A DNA stretch of 64,000 bases from an uncultured Holophagales bacterium (GCA_963842525.1 CAWJGT010000009.1:1408001-1472000), one strand, 5' to 3'; counted from the stretch's first letter, positions 35,671-46,942 are shown. Numbers and translations are program-made. The notes: generated from the letters alone by a model not told the origin.

Positions 35671-36714
35671 TCAGCGACGATTTGCGCGACGCGCCGTGAT
35701 CCGCTCACAAGCATAAATTTCGTCGTCGGCTAAATGTCGCTCAAGGGTTGCGAGCCGAGCTCTGAGGAGATCGATGGAGACGACTCCCGCGCGGACCAGT
35801 CGCCATGCGGTGCTCCTTTTGATTCCATGACGATGCCATTGCTCAACATGGGAGCACAGCGGACGTCCGAGCAACTCCTCACAAAGCTGGAGGCCGCGGC
35901 TCCCCAGCCCAGGGATGCGGAGTAGATCCTCGCGAGACAGCGCTGCCAAGGCCTTGACCGATTCGATGCCGGCCCGAAGGAGAGCATTGGCGAACGGCAG
36001 AGGCAAACCCTTCTCCCGCCAGTAGGCGGTGATTGAGCGCAGAGGACGGCCCAGAAGCTCCTCACATTTTTCTAGCGTTCTCTCATCGATTCCGCGGATT
36101 GCAAGGAGGTCCTCCCGCGAAGCATGCGCCAAGGCCGTAGTGCTCGTGACCCCAGCTTTTACCAGTCTGGCTGCGCAGCACGGTATGATTCCAGCCTCCA
36201 CCCAGATCCGGGCTTGTGGCATTCTTTCCAAGAAGGTGCGGGGAGTTGGCTTTGAAGGCTTGCCGGGCGAGCCGAATAGGCTCAATAACATCTCCGCCGC
36301 ATGGAGGCCGATCCCTTCGATTCCCAGGAGGTCATCCCTCTGCATACCTCTAAGCTGCTCGTCCGTCCGAATGCCGGCGGCTGCGAGCGCCACTGCGACC
36401 GTGGCTGGGATTCCGCGGGCGATCCAGTAGGGAGCGCAGGTTTCGAAGGATCGGCCCCGAAACCGTTCGATCTGCCTGACTGTCCATGGCCCGACACGTG
36501 GAAGAGCCAGGACAGCTTCCCGTGTGAGCCCCTCAAGCTCGGGGATGGTAACGCCTGCCCGCTTGAGAGTCTTTGCGACTTGTGCCGGCACGCGTCTCCG
36601 CGAGCGAAGCGCTGGAGCATGTCTTTCGCCGGATGCGTTGACAACATGGCTTAATTCCGCCTTCGAGCCCACGCCCAGGAACATAGGGCAGGGCCCTTCG
36701 CGCTCCAAGCACAA
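35671..36714 (-). CDS. Tandem helix-hairpin-helix / RNAP alpha-CTD-like repeat protein (start uncertain)
   Basis: About five repeats of W...G.....A..L..AG(I/V).S...L....REDLL.I.G(I/L)G......E.LLG. Confidence 0.7.
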   Translation of the reverse strand: MCLEREGPCPMFLGVGSKAELSHVVNASGERHAPALRSRRRVPAQVAKTLKRAGVTIPELEGLTREAVLALPRVGPWTVRQIERFRGRSFETCAPYWIARGIPATVAVALAAAGIRTDEQLRGMQRDDLLGIEGIGLHAAEMLLSLFGSPGKPSKPTPRTFLERMPQARIWVEAGIIPCCAARLVKAGVTSTTALAHASREDLLAIRGIDERTLEKCEELLGRPLRSITAYWREKGLPLPFANALLRAGIESVKALAALSREDLLRIPGLGSRGLQLCEELLGRPLCSHVEQWHRHGIKRSTAWRLVRAGVVSIDLLRARLATLERHLADDEIYACERITARRANRR

Positions 36715-36821
36715 TTTTGCGAAACGCTCCCAATGGGCGAGCGAATCACTCCTTTTTCCTTTGTCCCTTTTGGTGCCTCTGCGGCAACTTATGTCTAGGA
36801 GAGGTCAAGGGGAGGAGGCCC

Positions 36822-38273
36822 ATGCCGAAGCGAATACCGACCGCCGAAGGTGCCGTGCTGCGTCATTTCCGCCACCGCAAGGGAGCGACCCAGGAAGAGC
36901 TCGCCGAAAAAGCCGGAGTCTCCCCACGGACGATCGAGGGCTGGGAGACAGGGCGCTTTGAGCTGGAGCGCCAGCGGCTGGTGGAGATCCTCTCCCACCT
37001 GAAGGTCCCACCCGAAGCGATCGACGCCGCCCTGTGGTCGGATGACCTGGGGAACCCGCCCGAAGGAGGCTCCTTGTCCCCGGAGGGTGGGCTCGTCGAG
37101 CGGGCCGCCGTGGCCGCGGGCTCGGCGGCGACCAGGACCGCCCGCGCCGCCCTCAAGGCGGACCTGCTGCTCCGGCAGGCTCCCCGGCACCGCCAATGGG
37201 CGCAGGCGAGGTGGTCGCGGATGAAGAAGCTCACCGCCGCGCAGCAGGAGAAGGCAGTTGAAGTACTGCTGGGCGACGAGCGGAGCTGGGCCCTGGCGGA
37301 GCGGCTCTGCCTGGCCTCCGAAGCCGCTGCCGCCAACCGTGCCGACGAGGCCCTGCGACTGGCGCGGCTGGCGGTCCGCATCGCCGAGCACGTGCCGGAT
37401 TCGGGTTTGCGCCCGCGCCTGCTCGGCTGGGTGGAGCCCTTTGCCGCCAACGCCCTGCGAGTGGGGGGAGACCTTGCGGCTTCCTCGGAAGCGCTGGCCC
37501 ATGCCGATGAGCTTTGGGAGCAGGAAGCGGCCGGCGCTCCCGCCGGTCTGTTGGATGAGACACGACGGCTCGATCTTAAGGCGTCCCTCCTGATGTACTA
37601 CGGAAGATTCGAGGAGGTCCATTCCCTGCTCGCGGATGCCATGAAGGGTGTGCGGTCGGAACACACACGGGCGCGTCTTCTCATCAAACAGTCCAACGCC
37701 TTGATCTTTGCCGGCCGATACGAGGCTGCCCTCGAAGTGCTGAAGGAGGCGAAGCCGCTGACCGACGCCAAGGAAGATCCCCGGCTGATTCTGGTCCACG
37801 ACTTCAACAAGACGGTTGGCCTGCTGCACCTGGACCGTTTCCAAGAAGCCGCGCGCCTGCTGCCGTTGGTGGAAGCGCTGACCGATCCAGGCAACGAGCT
37901 GGACGTTGTTCGCCTGCGCTGGCTGAAGGGGCGCACCTGGGCGGGGCTCGGGCGCAGGGCGGAGGCTCTGGCAGCCCTGTCTGAGGTGCGCGGCTACTTC
38001 TTTTCCAAGACGATCGCCTACGACTTTGCCGTGGTGAGCGTGGAGCTGGGGACGCTGTACCTGGAGCAGGGGCGACCCCGCCTGGTCCGCGAGCTGGCCG
38101 ACCAGATGAAGTGGATTTTCATGGGGCAAGGAATCCATGAGAAAGTCCTGGAGGCCCTGGCTCTCTTCTGCCATGCGGCTCAGGCAGAAGAGGCCGAGGC
38201 GGAGTGGACCCGGCGACTCGTCAAATACCTCTACCGCGCCCAGCACAATCCGAGCCTGAAGTTCGAGCTGTGA
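36822..38273 (+). CDS. XRE-type HTH plus TPR-like helical repeat regulator (paralogue 1)
   Basis: RBS ggaggagg; LRHFRHRKGATQEELAEKAGVSPRTIEGWETG; Ala/Leu-rich TPR-like repeats. Confidence 0.85.
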   Translation: MPKRIPTAEGAVLRHFRHRKGATQEELAEKAGVSPRTIEGWETGRFELERQRLVEILSHLKVPPEAIDAALWSDDLGNPPEGGSLSPEGGLVERAAVAAGSAATRTARAALKADLLLRQAPRHRQWAQARWSRMKKLTAAQQEKAVEVLLGDERSWALAERLCLASEAAAANRADEALRLARLAVRIAEHVPDSGLRPRLLGWVEPFAANALRVGGDLAASSEALAHADELWEQEAAGAPAGLLDETRRLDLKASLLMYYGRFEEVHSLLADAMKGVRSEHTRARLLIKQSNALIFAGRYEAALEVLKEAKPLTDAKEDPRLILVHDFNKTVGLLHLDRFQEAARLLPLVEALTDPGNELDVVRLRWLKGRTWAGLGRRAEALAALSEVRGYFFSKTIAYDFAVVSVELGTLYLEQGRPRLVRELADQMKWIFMGQGIHEKVLEALALFCHAAQAEEAEAEWTRRLVKYLYRAQHNPSLKFEL

Positions 38274-38325
38274 GATGCGAAGAGGAAACAACAGGGCGCA
38301 GCGGGGCTGCGCCCATTGCCGCGGC

Positions 38326-38670
38326 TCAACTGCCGCAGCGGCCGCTCGGGTCAAGAATGCACCCATTGTCGGCTACGGCCGTCGCTCTGGGCAGGCAGCG
38401 GCCGTTCGGGTCAATGTCACACCCGTTGTCGGTGCCCGCTGACGTGCTTTCCGGCGGCAGGCAGCGGCCGCTCGGGTCAATCCCGCACCCGTTGGAGGCC
38501 CAGGCCCTGTTAAGGTGTGTCCACGCCCGGGCGAAGACTTCCCATAGGGCCGAGCCCGGAGAGACGTGGGGGGTGTGCAGCCCGGGCTCGGCGGCCTGGA
38601 GGGACGGCACCGCCAGGACCAGGCAGAGCACCAACAGCAGGACGGCTTTGGGCAGAAAGGCACGAACCAT
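38326..38670 (-). CDS. Secreted 114-aa precursor with three NGCx(I/L)DPxGRC repeats
   Basis: RBS aaaggag; signal peptide ending SLQA; cores NGCGIDPSGRC, NGCDIDPNGRC and NGCILDPSGRC. Confidence 0.85.
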   Translation of the reverse strand: MVRAFLPKAVLLLVLCLVLAVPSLQAAEPGLHTPHVSPGSALWEVFARAWTHLNRAWASNGCGIDPSGRCLPPESTSAGTDNGCDIDPNGRCLPRATAVADNGCILDPSGRCGS

Positions 38671-38812
38671 GACCGGCTCCTTTCGGAGCGCGCTCCGCAG
38701 CGGCCTCCCTGGCCGGCCGGGGCGCCTCCGGCCTATAGAGTGACAGGAGTCTGCGTGGAAAACGCACCGGAAACCACCCCAATGGGGGCTCCAACCGAAG
38801 GACGGCGAGGAC

Positions 38813-40305
38813 ATGCGGAGAATGGAATACGACCCGAGGGACCTGGGGCTCACCATCCTGTTGCTGTGCGAGCTTCAGGATATGAGCCTGCGCGAGCTGG
38901 GCCGGCGGTCCGGCATTGACAAGGGATCGATCAACGGCTATGTGAAGGGGACGGTGCGGCCGGTCCCGAGGAATCTGGCCCGGCTTGTGGCGACCTTTCG
39001 GATCACCCCTCTTCGCCTCGAGCGGCTCATCTCCCGGAGCAGAGCTTTCCGCCTCACCTATGAGGACGCCGGCCAGCAGGGTGAAGGCGAGGCCGTGCGG
39101 GCACCGGCCGAAGCACCGAGGGCGCTGGAGGGGAAGATCGGTGGCTCCGCCCTCGACGCAATGGCGCCGTTTCTTCAGGAACTGGCCCGGCTCGACCGCG
39201 GCCCCACGCCCCGCGCCGAGGACCGCCACTGGGCGGAGTCGGTCTGGTCGAGACTAGAGCCGCTCCGCGCCGAGGACCAAAGCGTCGCCGTCGACGTGCT
39301 GTTGGGAGACGAGCGAAGCTGGGCCCTGGCGGAGCGGATCTGCCTTGCGTCTGAAACCGCTGCCGCCAACCGCGCTGACGAAGCCCTGCGCCTGGCGCGG
39401 CTCGCCGTGCGTCTTGCCGAGCACGTGCCCGATGCGGATTTCCGCCCGAGCCTGCTGGCTGGGTAGAGCCCTTTGCCGCCAACGCCCTGCGGGTCGGGGG
39501 CGATCTCGCGGCTTCCGCGGAGGAGCTGGCCCATGCCGATAAGCTGTGGGAGCAGGGGGCGGCCGGCGCTGCCTCCGGTCTTCTGGATGACACCCGCCGG
39601 CTCGATCTGAAAGCGTCCCTCCTGATGTACTACGGCAGATTCGAGGAGGTCCACGCCTTGCTCGCGGATGCCATGCAGGCTGCACGGTCGGAGCACGAGC
39701 GGGCGCGTCTTCTCATCAAAAAGGCCAACACCTTGATCTTCGCCGGCCGGTACGAGGCTGCCCTCAAAATGTTGGCCGAGGCAAAGCCCCTGATCGACGC
39801 CAAGGACGATCCTCGCCTACACTTGGTCCACGACTTCAACAAGACAGTGAGCCTGCTGCACCTGGACGGTTTCCGGGAAGCCGAGCGCCTGCTGCCGAAG
39901 GTGGAGGCGTTGACCGATCCGGGCAACGAGCTGGACGGCGTGCGCCTGCGCTGGCTCCAAGGGCGCACCTGGGCGGGGCTCGGCCGCCGGGCGGAGGCCC
40001 TGGCAGCCCTGGCCGCAGTGCGGGAATACTTTCTGACCGAAGAGATCGCCTACGACTTTGCCGTGGTGAGCGTCGAGCTGGGCACCCTCTACCTGGAACA
40101 GGGCCGCTCCGGGCCGGTCCGCGAGCTGGCCGACCAGATGAAGTGGATTTTCGTGGGGCAAGGAATCCATCACGAAGCCCTGGCGGCGCTGGCGCTCTTC
40201 TGCCATGCGGCCCAGGCCGAAGAGGCCCAGGCGACATGGACCCGGCGGCTCGTCAAGTACCTTTACCGGGCGGAGCACGATCCGCGGCTGCAGTTCGAGC
40301 CGTGA
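38813..40305 (+). CDS. XRE-type HTH plus TPR-like regulator (paralogue 2); frameshift near 39457
   Basis: MSLRELGRRSGIDKGSINGYVKG HTH. From DERSWALAER onward it closely parallels paralogue 1; one base is missing relative to ctgctcggctgggtggag. Confidence 0.82.
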
Positions 40306-40397
40306 GCCTCGGAGAGGTGCGAGCAGGAGGAGTCGGAACGAAACACAATCCGCCCCACCCTCGTATTGCCCTTCGAATCCAAGGAGGGCTCTCTCTC

Positions 40398-40952
40398 ATG
40401 ACCCATCTGTTGCACGATCTTCCCTGGCCGTGCGCACGCACGGTGGGCAGGCCGGCCTCCTGGAGGCGGTGCAGAAGCAGGTCTGGGCGGTCGACCCCCA
40501 GCAGCCAATCACCGATGTGGTGACCATGGAGCGGATCGTGGCGCGTTCGGTCGGCGCCTACCGCTTCAATATGGCCCTGATGGGCGGCCTGGCTTTCCTG
40601 GCACTGGTGCTCGCGGCCGTGGGGATCTACGGCGTGCTGTCCTACCTGGTGCACCAGAGGACGCGCGAGATCGGGGTCCGCATGGCTCTCGGCGCCACGG
40701 CCGGGCACGTGCTGCGGATGGTGGTGCGCCAGGGACTGATCGCGGTCGGCATCGGCGTGGCGATCGGCCTGGGGGCCGCTTTCGGGCTGACGCGCCTGAT
40801 GGCGAGCCTGCTGGTCGGCGTCAGCGCGACCGATCCGCTGACCTTCGTGGCTCGCGCCGCTGGTCCTGGCTGCCGTGGCCCTCTTCGCCACCAGCCTCCC
40901 GGCCCGCCGCGCCAGCCATCTCAGCCCGGTTCTGGCGTTGCGGCGGGATTGA
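40398..40952 (+). pseudogene. Internally deleted FtsX/MacB-type (ADOP-like) ABC permease
   Basis: RBS plus MTHLLHDL start, joined directly to the C-terminal LAVRT...GIYGVLSY.V.QRTREIGVRMALGA...PARRA...P..ALR; additional frameshift near 40850. Confidence 0.75.
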
Positions 40953-40967
40953 GGCTCCGGCGGCGGG

Positions 40968-41321
40968 CATTGGTCCCGCGGTGGCGCGCAGCGGTCCCGC
41001 AGGACCGGCAGTGTCCGCCGCGGTACCATGGACGTTGCCCGCGGTGGCTGGCAGTGGTCCCGCGGGACCGGCAGTATTCGCTGCGGCACCATGGAGGTTC
41101 CCCGCGATGGTTGGCAGTGGTCCCACGGGACCGTCAGTGCTCGCCGCGGGACCATGGACGTTGGCCGCGGTGGCAGGCAGTGGTCCCGCAGGACCAGCAG
41201 TGTTCGCCGCGGCATCATGGGCATTCGCCGCGGTGGCAGGCAGTGGTCCCACGGGACCACCGGTGCTCGCCGCGGGACCATGGTCGTTGGCGGCGGTGAC
41301 GCGCAGTGGTCCCGCGGGCCG
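40968..41321. repeat. 63-bp tandem repeat with palindromic core
   Basis: Core gcagtggtccc(g/a)c(g/a)ggacc recurs at 40988, 41051, 41114, 41177, 41240 and 41303. Confidence 0.88.
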
Positions 41322-42391: not shown

Positions 42392-45300
42392 CTACTCGAA
42401 TTTCGCAGTATCATCCAACTGGGGCGAGGGGTTCGGCTCTCTTGTGTATCTGAGCAGTAGCGGGTGACCGGGAAACGCCTTGGCAGCCTCATCCCAGGCC
42501 GATGCAGTGCCCTCCTCGAGGAGGCTGCGCAAGAACTCGTCGATAGAGAGATCCGAGAAAGGTGAGACAGTTCTGTGGGCAGGCTCGGTCAGGAACCAGA
42601 GGGTCATGTTGCCTGCCAGGCTCTCTATCGATGGTGAGCCTAGGGCGCGACGGAGATCCTTGCGCCGTGGGACTGGATCGGTGACGGGAACTGGCCTGTT
42701 CTCCTCGGTTATCTCATAGCCTCCAAGAAATTCTGCGAGCCCTGCCAGTTTTTCAGCTTCCCGGGTGGAGAAGACGGGAACGGGCGCAGCCCATATGCCA
42801 TCGGCGGCGGCGACCCAGATGACCCGACCGTCAGAGCTGAAGAGAACATTCTTGAAGGTCGGGAAATCAAAGTTAGCAAGCACCTGTCCCGTGGCAAGGT
42901 CCCAGAGCTGCATTGGTGCGGCAAGAAGAACACGGCGGCCATCTGGACTAAAAAATCCGCCCTGGGAACCATCCACCTGGAACGGCTCAGCGATGGGCTT
43001 CACCGTCTCCATGTCCCAGGCGGTCAGGGCCGTGGTGGTCAGCGTTGACAAGTGGCGGAGCTTTGGATCGAATTCGACTTGGACGACGGAGGCCGGATGC
43101 AGCATCGCCCCGGCAACCTTCTTACCATTGGTACTATCCCAGATCATCACAGCACCTTCCGTAGTGCCGGTAGCAACCCAGAGTCCATCTGGACTCACGG
43201 ATATTGCTGGCGGATCCGGGTTGTATTGTCGCCGCTCGGAACCGAACCGAAGTGGAGGTCCCAGTGGCTTTCCGGTCCGAGTCTCCCAGATGCGGGCCGT
43301 ATCTTCCGACGCCGTCAAGAGACGCGTCCCATCGGAACTGAGCTGCATCCTCAAGATAGAAGGGGCGTGGTGGATTGTCACAGGAAGCGGTCGGCCGCTA
43401 ACAACCTCCCAGCTCTGTACCTGATCGTCGGTCGCAACGGCGAGGATGCCTCCTGTGCAAGCGAAGGCGCTTCCTTCCCGGTCGAGCGCTACAAGAGGTC
43501 CCTGGATGTCTCCTCGTCGGAGATCAAAGAAACCTACGCTTCTGCCGGATGTTGCTACAACAGTTTTGCCATCATTACAGAACGCAACCGGCCTCGCCGC
43601 TGTGGCGCTGTTTCCAAAGGCTGCTCTGAATTTGGGGAATGAGAATAGAAAGAGCCTCCTCTGGGGGCGGACGGGCTCGGCATCCCAGGTACGAATCGTA
43701 CCGTCCTCAGACACCGTCACGACACGTCGGCTCCTGCCAATGAATTTCGCTTGCTCCACTTCGTGCCATGGCTCGGCAATGGGTGTACCAGTGCGAGTAT
43801 CCCACAGAAGGACATTGCCATGGGAGCGCGCCAGCAGGAGCTGGCCATCGGCGCTCCATTCTGTGGATGTAGAAGAAAGCAGGGATGCGATCATCTCCAT
43901 GGCAAGAGAAGAACTACGGAACTGCGAGTTTAGGGGAGAGACTTTTAAATCTCTGAAGAGGAGACGAAAGCCGGCCGGGCTGAGCTGTGGCGGTGGAAAG
44001 GAAAAGTCAAGATCAGAGGCTTTTGCCGCGAAGTCGCCGCCTGGAGTCGGAAGCTGGAACTGCCCGCGACTGGTAGGAGCCCACCAGCCATGTTCCGGCT
44101 CCTCGCGGGTCGCCGTCTGCGTAGTGAGATCGAAGATCAGCGTGCTGTTATTCCCCAGCAACAGAATTCTGCGGCTGTCCGGGCTAAACCGAAGGACATG
44201 GGCCTCGGCGGCAATGCGCATGCCCTCACGTCGATCCCCGGCGGTTGAAACGAAGTACACGCGACGAGCTGCTGCAATCGAGAGCCACTGCTCGTCAGGG
44301 CTGAAGTCAGCCATCAGGGCTAAGTCCTCGGCTCGAAAGGACGGTTTTACCGGGCGACCCGTTCGAGCATCCAGAATACGCACCAAGTCGTTCCTGTAGG
44401 TTTCAGATGTAGCTACGGCAAGGAGGCGGCCTTGACCGCCAATCGCAAGGATTCGAGCTCGGGCGCCTAGAGTGATTTCGCTCCCCACCGCCCGAAGCGA
44501 CCAGGTTTCATATACGCGAGCTGTACCAAAGCGAGAGATCATTACAAAAAATCGCCCGTTCTCACTGAATTGTACAGTCCTGTCTTCATCGTTGTGCAGC
44601 AATGCAATGGGGAAGGGCCAGGTTCGCTGAAGGAGCTGAGTGGTGAGAAGGCTTTGAGCTTCCAGGCTCTCCGGATTTCGCCGCAGGGCTCGAGCCAGAT
44701 AGGCAAGTGCTTGGTCGGCTCGATCCTTTTGTAGTAGGATTCGCGCTTCCCTGAGGTCGGCATCTGCGAGGAAGTGCCGGTTCTCGCTCTGGGCTTGGAA
44801 ACCCCAGACGAGCAGCCCAGCAATGGCGAGAACAAGGACAGCTGCCGTCGCATAGCCCCACAGCGTGCGTTTCCGGCTCTTTTGAGCCACCGCCATTGAC
44901 CTTTCGATGAACCGCACGAGGATCGGGCGTAGCGAGGCATGATCGAGAGAAAGAAGGCGAGCGGCTTGGTCGAGCGCCTTGCCGGGAGGGATCAGCAGAC
45001 TGTCATCCTGTCCCTCCTGCGCCCACCGGGCTGCATTCTGATCCAGCCAAGCTCGGAATTTCAGGAACGCCCGGTCCTCTGCGAGCCAGGCGCGGGTCCG
45101 AGGCCAATGGGTGAGCAATGCCTCGTGAGTAATACCTACGAGCGGATTTCCATCGTCTGTGGAGCCGGTGACAAAGATCCGTGCTTCTACGAAGGCTTTG
45201 ACTAGCTTTCGCATTTCATTCGTGGTAAGTGACTCGAACGACACCTGCTGTGAGACCGGCGCGAACTCGGCCTCTGGCCGCACGGTGACCAGAAGGCGGA

Positions 45301-46942
45301 GAACGTAGAATAGTGCCGCCTGGACCTCGAGTGGCTGCTGGAGGAAAATCTCCTCCGCCCGGTTCCCGATTGCTCCTTCAAGCCCTCCGAGATTTTCATA
45401 GGCCGACAACGTTAGAAGTTGCTCGGGTGTTCGCCGTTGGTAGAGCTGTTCGAGCAAGAACTCCAACAGAGGCAGGCTTTCGGGCCGCCCTACCGCCGCA
45501 TCACGCAGGACATCATCTAGCCTCTCACCCTTGTCACGGCGGTCCTCGAATTTCAGGCCTGCGGCTTCGGCTGGACGGCGGATGATCTGGCCGATGCCAG
45601 CCGCATCCGGTGGTGGCAGATGATAGAGGCCAGAGCCGGCCATGAGATCGCGGAGCCCGGAGACCTCGTCACAATGAGCATAGAAGTCACTGCGCAGGGT
45701 CGCGATCACCCAGACCCGTCCACTTGAGACGAGGGAACTCAGCGCAATGACGAGTCCCCGGCGGGCCTCCGGCGTCACCTCGGCGAGAGTAAAGATCTCC
45801 TCCATCTGGTCAACGAACAAGGCGAGTTGCGCCTCCGGTTGTCGGTCCAGACGTTGTTTGCTCTGCTCCTTGGCCGCGGCCTGCGAGAGGGCTCCCTTGA
45901 CGAGGAGGTCGGCGGCAGACGGCTCCTCCTGCAGGCGACACGCGATCCCCGCGGCTGGCGTTCCGTCTGCCGCGAGCTCGGGCAACGCGCCGGGTTGGAG
46001 CAGAGAGGCGGCCAGCCCCTCGGAGAGGTTGCCGGACGACTGGTGGGGGACGAAGAGTGCGGTCCTCCAGAGGCCTACGCCCTCAATCACTCCTGGCTCG
46101 GTGAGCAGCGGGAGGACTCCGGCCCGTACCAGCGACGATTTGCCGCTGCCGCTTGCACCGAGGACGAGCACGAACGGGTTTCCTGCGACCGCCTGGGCAC
46201 GCCATGCGTCCAGGACGTGGCTGATCTCGCGCGTCCGCCCAAAGAACACAGCGGCGTGGGCACGCTCGAAAACTTCAAGCCCGCGGAAGGGAGAGTCGCC
46301 CGTCCAGGTCGGCTGGGAAACCCGCCGGTCTTCCAGGTCCGCCGGAGGGGCACGCCGATCGAGCAACCGCCGGAGGTGCACTTCCAGGACCGCTTCGAAT
46401 TCCACCGGGCTTGCGAAGGGGTGGAAGGCGGCGCGCAGGGAGCCGTCCTCGTTTTCGCACCAGCCCTCAAGAAAGTGATCGAGAGCCTTCTTCTGCGCAA
46501 GCCGCCGCTCCGCTGCTTCAGTGTCAGCGAGGCTCACCATGGCTTCTGTAGTTTTACGGTAGACGAGGAGGTCCGGGCGACCCTGGGTTAAGCGCCAAGC
46601 CTCTGCGGCGGTCTCAAGCTCGTATTGGGTGCCGGAGTCGTACCGGCTGCCGTCCGGGCGGGTGATGTTGGGCGGCAATCGAGTGCCGAGGCGCGCCCAC
46701 AGGATGCAGACGACGATGTCCGCCTCGGCCGGAGAGGGCAACTGCGACTGGAAGTCCTGCGTTGCACTGAGCGGCTCGTGCTCCCAGAAGATGCCGGCCA
46801 GATCCGCCCGTGGTGCGAATTCGTTCTTGAGCCGCTCGATGACCCGCTCCGCGAGCACGCGCTCCTCGGCCACGTCCCCGGGTGACGAGACGAAGATCTT
46901 CAGGATGGGTTGCCGCGGGTCGAATATCTGTTCGGAATCTAT
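42392..46942 (-). CDS. TIR-like (DUF4062-type) domain - STAND (nSTAND1-like) NTPase - TM - WD40 protein
   Basis: KIFVSSPGDVAEER, SGTQYE, SPFRGL..F....A.VFFGR, GASGSGKSS, VDQMEE, TLRSDF, HEALL..WP, one TM helix, WD repeats. The frame is open upstream of GTG 46873 as far as ATA 46942. Confidence 0.88.
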   Translation of the reverse strand: MDSEQIFDPRQPILKIFVSSPGDVAEERVLAERVIERLKNEFAPRADLAGIFWEHEPLSATQDFQSQLPSPAEADIVVCILWARLGTRLPPNITRPDGSRYDSGTQYELETAAEAWRLTQGRPDLLVYRKTTEAMVSLADTEAAERRLAQKKALDHFLEGWCENEDGSLRAAFHPFASPVEFEAVLEVHLRRLLDRRAPPADLEDRRVSQPTWTGDSPFRGLEVFERAHAAVFFGRTREISHVLDAWRAQAVAGNPFVLVLGASGSGKSSLVRAGVLPLLTEPGVIEGVGLWRTALFVPHQSSGNLSEGLAASLLQPGALPELAADGTPAAGIACRLQEEPSAADLLVKGALSQAAAKEQSKQRLDRQPEAQLALFVDQMEEIFTLAEVTPEARRGLVIALSSLVSSGRVWVIATLRSDFYAHCDEVSGLRDLMAGSGLYHLPPPDAAGIGQIIRRPAEAAGLKFEDRRDKGERLDDVLRDAAVGRPESLPLLEFLLEQLYQRRTPEQLLTLSAYENLGGLEGAIGNRAEEIFLQQPLEVQAALFYVLRLLVTVRPEAEFAPVSQQVSFESLTTNEMRKLVKAFVEARIFVTGSTDDGNPLVGITHEALLTHWPRTRAWLAEDRAFLKFRAWLDQNAARWAQEGQDDSLLIPPGKALDQAARLLSLDHASLRPILVRFIERSMAVAQKSRKRTLWGYATAAVLVLAIAGLLVWGFQAQSENRHFLADADLREARILLQKDRADQALAYLARALRRNPESLEAQSLLTTQLLQRTWPFPIALLHNDEDRTVQFSENGRFFVMISRFGTARVYETWSLRAVGSEITLGARARILAIGGQGRLLAVATSETYRNDLVRILDARTGRPVKPSFRAEDLALMADFSPDEQWLSIAAARRVYFVSTAGDRREGMRIAAEAHVLRFSPDSRRILLLGNNSTLIFDLTTQTATREEPEHGWWAPTSRGQFQLPTPGGDFAAKASDLDFSFPPPQLSPAGFRLLFRDLKVSPLNSQFRSSSLAMEMIASLLSSTSTEWSADGQLLLARSHGNVLLWDTRTGTPIAEPWHEVEQAKFIGRSRRVVTVSEDGTIRTWDAEPVRPQRRLFLFSFPKFRAAFGNSATAARPVAFCNDGKTVVATSGRSVGFFDLRRGDIQGPLVALDREGSAFACTGGILAVATDDQVQSWEVVSGRPLPVTIHHAPSILRMQLSSDGTRLLTASEDTARIWETRTGKPLGPPLRFGSERRQYNPDPPAISVSPDGLWVATGTTEGAVMIWDSTNGKKVAGAMLHPASVVQVEFDPKLRHLSTLTTTALTAWDMETVKPIAEPFQVDGSQGGFFSPDGRRVLLAAPMQLWDLATGQVLANFDFPTFKNVLFSSDGRVIWVAAADGIWAAPVPVFSTREAEKLAGLAEFLGGYEITEENRPVPVTDPVPRRKDLRRALGSPSIESLAGNMTLWFLTEPAHRTVSPFSDLSIDEFLRSLLEEGTASAWDEAAKAFPGHPLLLRYTREPNPSPQLDDTAKFE

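Follow-up and report, generated by a model that had tools for sequence, protein, structure and literature searches.

A cassette of HTH-TPR regulators and a Cys-loop repeat peptide in Acidobacteriota, a candidate peptide-sensing switch

The locus described here lies in a window of 64,000 nucleotides (nt) from an uncultured Holophagales bacterium (GCA_963842525.1 CAWJGT010000009.1:1408001-1472000), the window being the whole stretch of DNA that was analysed. At positions 36,822 to 40,305, the window contains a gene for a small, putatively exported peptide precursor with three Cys loops, flanked by genes for two regulators, R1 and R2, that combine an XRE-type helix-turn-helix (HTH) head with a tetratricopeptide-repeat (TPR) domain (Table 1). 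In what follows, Ra denotes the regulator that is convergent with the peptide gene, Rb denotes the regulator that is divergent from it, R denotes either, and the three genes together are called the cassette.

Architecture of the locus

The peptide gene and its two neighbours form a convergent pair and a divergent pair. In particular, 52 nt separate the stop codon of R1 from the stop codon of the peptide gene, and 142 nt separate the start of R2 from the peptide ATG. An earlier note on this DNA had described a 114-aa protein with a signal peptide, a Trp-rich helix, and three CX7C cores, encoded convergent to one HTH-TPR gene and divergent from a second; translation yields that protein, and the layout is the one described. 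The note's "twin HTH-TPR receptors" stand insofar as both genes are present and encode an HTH, but the note missed that the reading frame of R2 is broken.

R1 is recognized by the Pfam profiles HTH_31 (E = 1e-10) and HTH_3 (E = 5.8e-9), has a Shine-Dalgarno sequence (SD), GGAGGAGG, 5′ of its ATG, and has orthologues that are 84–61% identical to it. The AlphaFold2 (AF2) model of R1, with a mean predicted local distance difference test (pLDDT) score of 90.9 and a predicted template-modelling (pTM) score of 0.78, is all-helical. Specifically, HTH helices occupy residues 8–77, a long helix occupies residues 87–134, and paired repeat helices occupy residues 139–473; the protein has no membrane segment. 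R2 matches the Pfam profile HTH_3 (E = 7.3e-6) and shows weak matches to TPR profiles.

The N-terminus of the precursor appears, by eye, to be a signal peptide, with R3 and K8 preceding a hydrophobic stretch at residues 9–21 and the sequence LQA/AEPG, and this layout is kept across 49 aligned homologues. The AF2 model of the precursor is of low confidence (mean pLDDT 63) and contains two helices, at residues 6–20 and 38–59, with the spacers between cores low-confidence or disordered. Within the second helix, W43, W50, and W57 are at heptad spacing, and W50 is nearly invariant in the 49 homologues. The three cores, N60–C70, N82–C92, and N102–C112, are each a C-x7-C loop with the consensus NGCx[IL]DPxGRC. 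Across the same alignment, the invariant residues are G61, C62, D65, P66, and G68 in core 1 (with C70 at 90% or more), C84, D87, P88, G90, and C92 in core 2, and G103, C104, D107, P108, G110, and C112 in core 3, whereas the spacers vary in both length and sequence. Homologues contain one to five cores (three in 59, two in 37, and four in 16), and the commonest core-to-core period is 22 residues. The window precursor ends 2 residues after core 3, and among 118 homologues, 79 have 2 residues beyond the last Cys and 27 have 4. Because the cores are invariant, the spacers variable and disordered, the number of cores changeable, and the C-terminus fixed, the peptide looks more like a propeptide than like a folded protein. 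It matches no family in Pfam or NCBIfam, and in the ESM Atlas it matches only unnamed Acidobacteriota clusters.

Two positions within the core behave differently from each other. When cores of one precursor are compared in pairs, 52% of the pairs have the same residue after the first Cys, as against 20% between precursors, which makes this site a candidate identity position. At the position following DP, occupied by S, N, or D, the corresponding values are 21% within precursors and 31% between them (homologue set P0001–P0120), which suggests position-specific preferences along the chain.

The region between the peptide gene and R2 contains a leader that recurs at paralogous loci. The window leader comprises a TCACTCTATA box (38734–38743), GGAGGCGCC, the element GGCC-AGGGA-GGCC (38702–38714), and the SD AAAGGAG (38677–38683), which is located 6 nt 5′ of the peptide ATG. 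The series common to the window and 12 paralogous leaders (L083–L094) is a GCACCATA-like box at about −80, GAGGCGCC, GGCCATGGnGGCC at about −45, and the SD AAAGGAG. The corresponding 13-mer, GGCCA[TC][GA]G.GGCC, has 85 matches in the genome, 12 of them in peptide leaders, and the leader motif also precedes the peptide genes of the anti-sigma-linked type described below. The series may be a promoter, an operator, or a protein-binding leader. RNAalifold on the 13 leaders gave a weak result (−6.78 kcal/mol, covariation term 0.11), and we claim no RNA structure. Over positions 36500–40500, a sigma-70 promoter scan found none, and Rfam returned only a chance-level microRNA match (E = 0.42). A sigma-54 promoter in the TGGCAC-like box was considered and dropped because, by eye, the spacing in the best copy is wrong by one and most copies lack the −12 element. 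Phylogenetic footprinting of the intergenic region failed to give sites, because cassette loci of the same genus are only ~67% identical in DNA.

At the other end of the peptide gene, a consensus scan finds a terminator-like hairpin with a 9-bp stem containing 8 GC pairs, a loop of 3, and a T-rich tail. Such sites are no commoner in the scan than in shuffled sequence, and the hairpin is suggestive only.

Table 1. Features of the cassette, in positions of the window
Feature	Position	Strand	Remark or basis
R1 (Ra), XRE-HTH, long linker helix, and TPR-type superhelix	36822..38273	+	483 aa, cytoplasmic; partner of the peptide gene, conserved and convergent
Terminator-like GC hairpin between the convergent stops, just 3′ of the peptide gene	38294..38314	-	consensus scan
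Peptide precursor gene (P0001)	38326..38670	-	114-aa translation
Core 3, NGCILDPSGRC, residues 102–112	38335..38367	-	alignment
Core 2, NGCDIDPNGRC, residues 82–92	38395..38427	-	alignment
Core 1, NGCGIDPSGRC, residues 60–70	38461..38493	-	alignment
Trp-heptad amphipathic helix, residues 38–59 (W43, W50, W57)	38494..38559	-	AF2; conservation of W50
Putative signal peptide, residues 1–26, LQA/AEPG	38593..38670	-	by eye; alignment; AF2 helix 6–20
Divergent intergenic region with peptide leader	38671..38812	.	alignment of 13 paralogous leaders
R2 (Rb), second XRE-HTH/TPR regulator, frameshifted	38813..40305	+	Pfam; orthologue comparison

Linkage of the peptide family to HTH-TPR regulators

The core motif is abundant in the genome and is concentrated beside R-like genes. 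The pattern GC.[ILVM]DP.G occurs 46 times, in 25 open reading frames (ORFs) of the 9.95-Mb genome, compared with an expectation from composition of 2.56 in six-frame translation, or 0.06 with the closing Cys; the core motif is therefore not a product of chance. A hidden Markov model (HMM) comprising the helix and the first core identifies 39 peptide-family ORFs at E ≤ 0.01 among 121,887 stop-to-stop ORFs, and tblastn with R1 identifies 81 R-like loci. Thirty-three of the 39 peptide ORFs are located within 1 kb of an R-like locus, compared with the 2.4% of the genome that these loci and their 1-kb margins occupy. Twenty have a convergent R, 12 of them as triads with a second, divergent R; 1 has a divergent R only; 12 are directly upstream of, and co-directional with, an R; and 6 have no R. 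Two pairs of peptide ORFs at contig ends are identical and have identical flanking regulators (C9:3995-4405 and C18:2597-3007; C8:907-1215 and C10:32941-33249), representing either assembly redundancy or very recent duplication, and they slightly inflate the copy counts.

The same linkage is found when the search starts from the regulator. An alignment of 67 R proteins yielded 37 loci in other genomes, all metagenome-assembled and assigned to Thermoanaerobaculia, Thermoanaerobaculaceae, "Holophagales UBA5704", or Acidobacteriota. A peptide-family ORF is present at 27 of the 37, and in all 27 it is immediately downstream of R, on the opposite strand, at a distance of 19–256 nt. Of the ten loci that remain, three have no downstream DNA available (L044, L062, L070), and seven have flanking DNA with no peptide match, most of them being partial R matches. 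At most loci with enough flanking sequence, a second R follows the peptide gene; at three of them (L038, L049, L052) the second R has a convergent peptide gene of its own, giving tandem units, and elsewhere none is found within the available flank. Starting from the peptide, all nine peptide loci from nine other genomes have an R within 1.5 kb.

The earlier note had proposed a genome-wide search with the core motif and had named a lack of enrichment beside HTH-TPR genes among the results that would speak against its proposal. The search recovers the motif well above chance, and the three counts (33/39, 27/37, and 9/9) decisively contradict a lack of enrichment. The note's remark that no modifying enzyme for a ribosomally synthesized and post-translationally modified peptide (RiPP) is adjacent holds more widely, since a survey of ±5 kb around 43 loci finds none. 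The same neighbourhoods share no conserved third gene family, and the other gene clusters in them have no Pfam match or only small HTH matches.

The peptide profile matches all 24 genomes searched from the same taxonomic family, with 1–39 matches in each and 44 in the window genome. Among genomes from other families of the order, 6 of the 16 searched are matched (both in f3, both in f4, and the single ones in f6 and f11), and among 300 genomes sampled evenly across the phylum, with only 15 candidates scored per genome, the only match is the one genome of the same family. A 5.8-billion set contains 134 peptide homologues at E ≤ 1e-3, all named "hypothetical protein", and a 1.84-billion representative library contains 2004 cluster representatives at E ≤ 1e-3 and 897 at E ≤ 1e-10, the best 150 library matches listed being 92–201 aa long. 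The cassette, with Ra convergent to the peptide gene and Rb divergent from it, is specific to one Acidobacteriota lineage, Thermoanaerobaculia. A literature search that covered only a minority of subscription-journal papers found no description of the cassette in Acidobacteria.

One sensor domain on alternative heads

R1 and R2 share a sensor and differ in their heads. The two proteins are 83% identical over 280 C-terminal TPR residues (E = 6e-155) and have no detectable similarity over their first 122 residues (best E = 0.70), and each type of HTH head has its own orthologues in other genomes. A quick maximum-likelihood tree (IQ-TREE) of 56 TPR C-terminal halves from the genome places the XRE-linked sensors in one clade (SH-aLRT 98) and places Ra and Rb of the same triad as sisters in the window, in C7, and in C11 (SH-aLRT 100 each). 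Likewise, for 9 of the 10 triads compared from other genomes, no sensor in the comparison is closer than that of the neighbouring regulator, although some margins are small. Alike sensors with distinct heads within a locus are expected if both regulators read the same locus-specific ligand, and these sequence comparisons are supportive of, but not decisive for, one sensor specificity serving two outputs in a triad; local gene conversion alone would also give alike sensor halves. Within the sensor, N210 and R213, in the motif A-N-A-x-R-V, are invariant or nearly so in the XRE type, and the counterpart G-N-A-R-R-V is conserved in the anti-sigma type.

This second type comprises 15 R-like genes of the genome that have no XRE HTH; of these, 14 are scored as TPR proteins, including three that additionally score as MalT-type TPR. 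The N-termini of eight that were aligned have invariant residues H5, C35, and C38 plus a His at about position 30, with the spacing H-x4-C-x2-C. A profile of this N-terminal module, searched against solved structures, finds ChrR best (2q1z_B and 2z2s_B, E = 0.0045–0.0049), followed by RslA (3hug_B, E = 0.32) and the N-terminal part of RseA (E = 0.44). Pfam gives no relevant match, and no zf-HC2 match, on seven N-terminal pieces. The module resembles the His/Cys module of the ChrR/RslA class of zinc-binding anti-sigma factors, here in place of the HTH. Members of that class have the spacing H-x3-C-x2-C, whereas the sister proteins have H-x4-C-x2-C, are soluble, and carry a TPR sensor; their type is absent from the window itself. 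From its sequence, we consider the module anti-sigma-like, not proven to be an anti-sigma domain. Around the 15 peptide-linked loci examined, the nearest sigma gene is 2.5 kb away (C24), and none is closer than 2 kb. Two R-like TPR genes (C34:43598-45431 and C34:46015-47855) each directly follow a gene for an extracytoplasmic-function (ECF)-type sigma factor (Sigma70_r2) and have no detected peptide neighbour, an adjacency that fits an anti-sigma role for that R-like branch.

The anti-sigma-type genes are directly downstream of small peptide genes that encode a signal peptide, an LWxxLxxxW helix, and G-x-x-[ILM]-D-P-x-G repeats. The sister peptides mostly lack Cys, and most end exactly in DPNG, DPDG, DPHG, or DPNGRP; the Cys loop is therefore not essential to the wider family. 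Because the LWxxLxxxW helix and the DPxG element are kept in both the Cys-loop and the Cys-free subfamily, they are the constants of the family, and the Cys loop marks the XRE-linked subfamily. Since the same sensor carries either an XRE head or an anti-sigma-like head beside the peptide gene, it is the TPR domain, rather than any one output head, that constantly accompanies the peptide.

A possible peptide-sensing switch and its rivals

A conserved set of genes, linked in a specific orientation and built as regulator, propeptide, and regulator, with one sensor on alternative heads and with neighbouring sensors alike, invites comparison with peptide-pheromone systems. We put the chance that the cassette is a peptide-sensing transcription switch, working in the manner of RRNPP systems, at about even. 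In such a switch, the 114-aa precursor would be exported by Sec and lose its signal peptide, and the Trp helix would serve as a pro-region or processing handle. One or more (N)GCx[IL]DPxGxC units, or the C-terminal unit, would be released, and the loops might be closed by disulfides in the periplasm. The product, or the unprocessed chain, would then reach the cytoplasm, for example through an Opp-type importer, and would bind the TPR domain common to R1 and R2, perhaps around the N210/R213 motif. Binding would change the action on DNA of two different HTH heads, by analogy with Rgg2/Rgg3, with likely targets that include the 142-bp control region between the peptide gene and R2. The signal might pass from cell to cell, as in quorum sensing, or from periplasm to cytoplasm within one cell. 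Three Opp/Dpp-type binding proteins (SBP_bac_5) are encoded in the genome.

Known systems provide partial parallels. The RGSGR peptides of PatS and HetN, which act on HetR in filamentous cyanobacteria, are a case of a gene-encoded short peptide acting on a cytoplasmic DNA-binding protein in a diderm; unlike the cassette, the PatS/HetN system has no TPR receptor, Sec signal peptide, repeated Cys loops, or paralogue expansion. The best analogy for Ra and Rb is Rgg2 and Rgg3, which are also two paralogous regulators, each with an HTH and a repeat domain, for one peptide signal. Rgg2 and Rgg3 bind the same promoters, whereas the heads of Ra and Rb are unrelated in sequence, so that different operators are expected. 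The Rgg2/Rgg3-SHP system of Streptococcus pyogenes is described as two opposing regulators that answer the same peptides (PMC3150281), and the canonical RRNPPA path is described as a cut by signal peptidase, export by Sec, uptake by Opp, and recognition by a cytoplasmic TPR receptor (PMC9765709). Multi-pheromone propeptides are documented for Rap and proposed for AimR, PlcR, and NprR (PMC11343458; PMC9765709). Gene-encoded peptides read by cytoplasmic TPR receptors are presented as a hallmark of Bacillota and their phages and plasmids (PMC10075063; PMC11343458); Bacillota are said to use typically peptide signals, and Pseudomonadota and Actinomycetota to use typically small molecules (PMC10075063, on RRNPP_detector).

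The cassette resembles the RRNPP(A) systems in having a cytoplasmic XRE-HTH and TPR receptor (an HTH head being a feature of the NprR, PlcR, Rgg, PrgX, and AimR branches), an adjacent propeptide gene of apparent Sec type (signal peptide by eye), several putative mature units per propeptide, many paralogous cassettes, and an encoded Opp-type importer. It differs from them in several respects. The host belongs to the diderm Acidobacteriota rather than to Bacillota. The repeated unit, a C-x7-C loop of 11 residues in which DPxG is invariant, contrasts with the short linear hydrophobic or charged peptide of RRNPP(A) systems. The cassette is canonically convergent, sets a single peptide gene between two receptors that share a sensor, and occurs in up to 44 copies per genome.

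Several results weigh against such a switch, and the structural comparison counts on both sides. Foldseek and a wide VIA search place R1 among TPR superhelices. The Z scores of the R1 fold are 18.6 for RapI, 18.0 for NprR with NprX, 17.8 for the phage phi105 Rap with peptide, 16.7 for the pLS20 Rap, 15.6 for RapH, 15.5 for AimR, and 15.4 for PlcR, compared with 21.4 for APPBP2, 19.4 for LGN, 18.6–18.9 for subunits of APC/C, and 15.9 for MalT domain III; the RRNPP receptors are thus among the best matches, a point in favour of the switch, but the modelled likeness to them is no better than that to unrelated TPR proteins. A profile of 67 R sequences, searched against the PDB, reached Rgg through the HTH only (4yv6, E = 8.8e-4) and reached no TPR domain of Rap, NprR, or PlcR. 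The earlier note had called the system RRNPP-analogous; the HTH-TPR parts and the adjacent, putatively exported propeptide agree with this, but the HTH-only match and the generic fold scores leave homology to RRNPP receptors unsupported. R1 uses RRNPP-like parts but cannot be filed as a member of the family.

The state of the regulator genes weighs against the switch. R2 contains a 1-nt frameshift at about 39455–39462 that divides it into ORFs of 217 and 226 aa and may mark either a true pseudogene or a fault of assembly. The frame is unbroken in its orthologues P0140 (498 aa) and P0142 (501 aa), and R2 is 83–84% identical to P0140 in two frames that meet at the LLGW codons. The longest contigs given for these two orthologues (4634 and 23816 bp) match in length those given for orthologues of R1 and of the peptide. 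In tblastn, several other R loci of the genome likewise fall into more than one frame (among them loci on C1, C3, C5, C10, C18, and C25), reflecting either the decay of many copies or indel errors in the assembly. In public sequencing data, words of the window occur in only two soil-metagenome contig sets (shares of 0.13 and 0.06) and in no RNA set, and the site at 39455–39462 is uncovered in them.

The proposed route adds difficulties of its own. We infer, rather than observe, the steps of export, cleavage, disulfide formation, re-import, binding, and transcriptional effect, and no protease, exporter, or importer is linked within ±5 kb of the 43 loci. A peptide of ~1.1 kDa in a diderm periplasm must cross the outer membrane twice to act between cells, and the cytoplasm would reduce any disulfide formed in the periplasm. 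About 40 paralogues in one genome have nearly identical cores, and cross-talk is expected unless 3–4 variable positions or the helix provide specificity. The convergent orientation is unusual for a regulator and its target. A complex prediction with R1 residues 121–483 and peptide residues 27–114, both with alignments, scored 0.00 in two runs with the fold of the partner uncertain, and does not bear on binding either way. The gene architecture and the enrichment beside HTH-TPR genes are well established; signalling is unproven.

The main rival is that the HTH-TPR proteins sense a metabolite or a protein partner and merely control a neighbouring gene for a secreted effector, which could be a structural peptide of the periplasm or the cell exterior, a peptide that binds metal or the cell wall, or an antimicrobial peptide. 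Local regulators commonly adjoin their targets, and the peptide gene has its own SD, a conserved leader, and a terminator-like hairpin. The leader motif is common to the peptide genes partnered by XRE-type and by anti-sigma-type regulators, and so does not serve as an operator for one HTH alone; the ligands of TPR domains are of many kinds, and the proteins that match the R1 fold best are not peptide-pheromone receptors. However, the anti-sigma-type partners have no DNA-binding domain and yet keep the same peptide neighbour, and the canonical pair is convergent rather than divergent (27 of 27). That the two flanking regulators keep similar sensors behind different heads fits a ligand common to both and specific to the locus, and 30–44 near-identical "effectors" per genome have no obvious use. 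On balance, we judge control of a mere effector gene to be unlikely, though it is the most serious of the competing explanations; if it is correct, the peptides are a large unexplained family of secreted Cys-loop repeat proteins.

Two further explanations keep the peptide within one cell or within a biosynthetic pathway. The exported Cys-loop chain might report on periplasmic conditions such as oxidative folding, proteolysis, or secretion load, with fragments or unexported precursor feeding back on the TPR regulators of the same cell and no communication between cells. Such a cell-autonomous reporter would suit a diderm with no linked outer-membrane exporter in the 43 neighbourhoods, receptors that are cytoplasmic, as is R1 with no membrane segment, and CX7C loops, which would be substrates of periplasmic thiol oxidation. 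It is hard to square with the dispensability of Cys in the sister subfamily and with dozens of fast-diverging copies per genome, which would be odd in a housekeeping stress sensor; the ~67% DNA identity of same-genus loci looks more like diversifying recognition, and we consider the reporter quite improbable. The precursor might instead belong to a RiPP or bacteriocin pathway, with the Trp helix a leader for unlinked maturation enzymes and the HTH-TPR genes pathway regulators or immunity-related. A leader-like helix followed by one to five repeated cores with variable spacers is reminiscent of several RiPP classes, for which multi-core precursors are typical. Most RiPP leaders are cytoplasmic, however, and this precursor has an apparent Sec signal peptide; the family has no Pfam or NCBIfam match, and no modifying enzyme, transporter, or immunity gene is conserved around the 43 loci. 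We regard a RiPP pathway as the least probable explanation, with little chance of being correct.

If the cassette is a peptide-sensing switch, it would represent RRNPP-like peptide signalling in diderm Acidobacteriota, with 30–44 parallel, fast-diverging channels per genome, each comprising one precursor, exported by Sec, with several DPxG loops that disulfides could close and two cytoplasmic receptors that share a sensor and differ in their DNA-binding heads, together with an anti-sigma sister branch. This broader proposal is tentative, and we rate it somewhat short of an even chance. In the sister branch, the same sensor would drive an anti-sigma head, so that a secreted peptide would directly control a sigma factor; the RRNPP-like system would have arisen in, or spread to, a phylum where none is known. 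A peptide-TPR cassette in abundant, mostly uncultured soil Acidobacteria would widen the picture to diderm bacteria. It would imply a large private signal vocabulary for these organisms, a natural example of one sensor wired to three outputs (two HTH heads and an anti-sigma head), and many orthogonal peptide/regulator pairs for synthetic circuits.

Neighbouring genes

Directly upstream of R1, on the opposite strand, positions 35671–36714 (−) encode a 347-aa protein of repeated helix-hairpin-helix units similar to the C-terminal domain (CTD) of the RNA polymerase alpha subunit (HHH_5, E = 5.3e-17; RNA_pol_A_CTD, E = 1.5e-11). On the 3′ side of R2, where a convergent peptide gene of R2 would be expected, positions 40205–41318 hold an ORF with only a C-terminal FtsX permease domain (Pfam FtsX, E = 1.9e-12). 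This ORF runs into a 63-nt tandem repeat of 5.5 copies (40975–41318, 82% matches), and the segment looks like a truncated transporter gene with a rearrangement scar. Further downstream, positions 42392–46873 (−) encode a 1493-aa protein in which an N-terminal segment of ~190 aa with no assigned domain accompanies an nSTAND1 NTPase domain (E = 2.6e-89) and WD40 propellers, the architecture of a STAND-type sensor.

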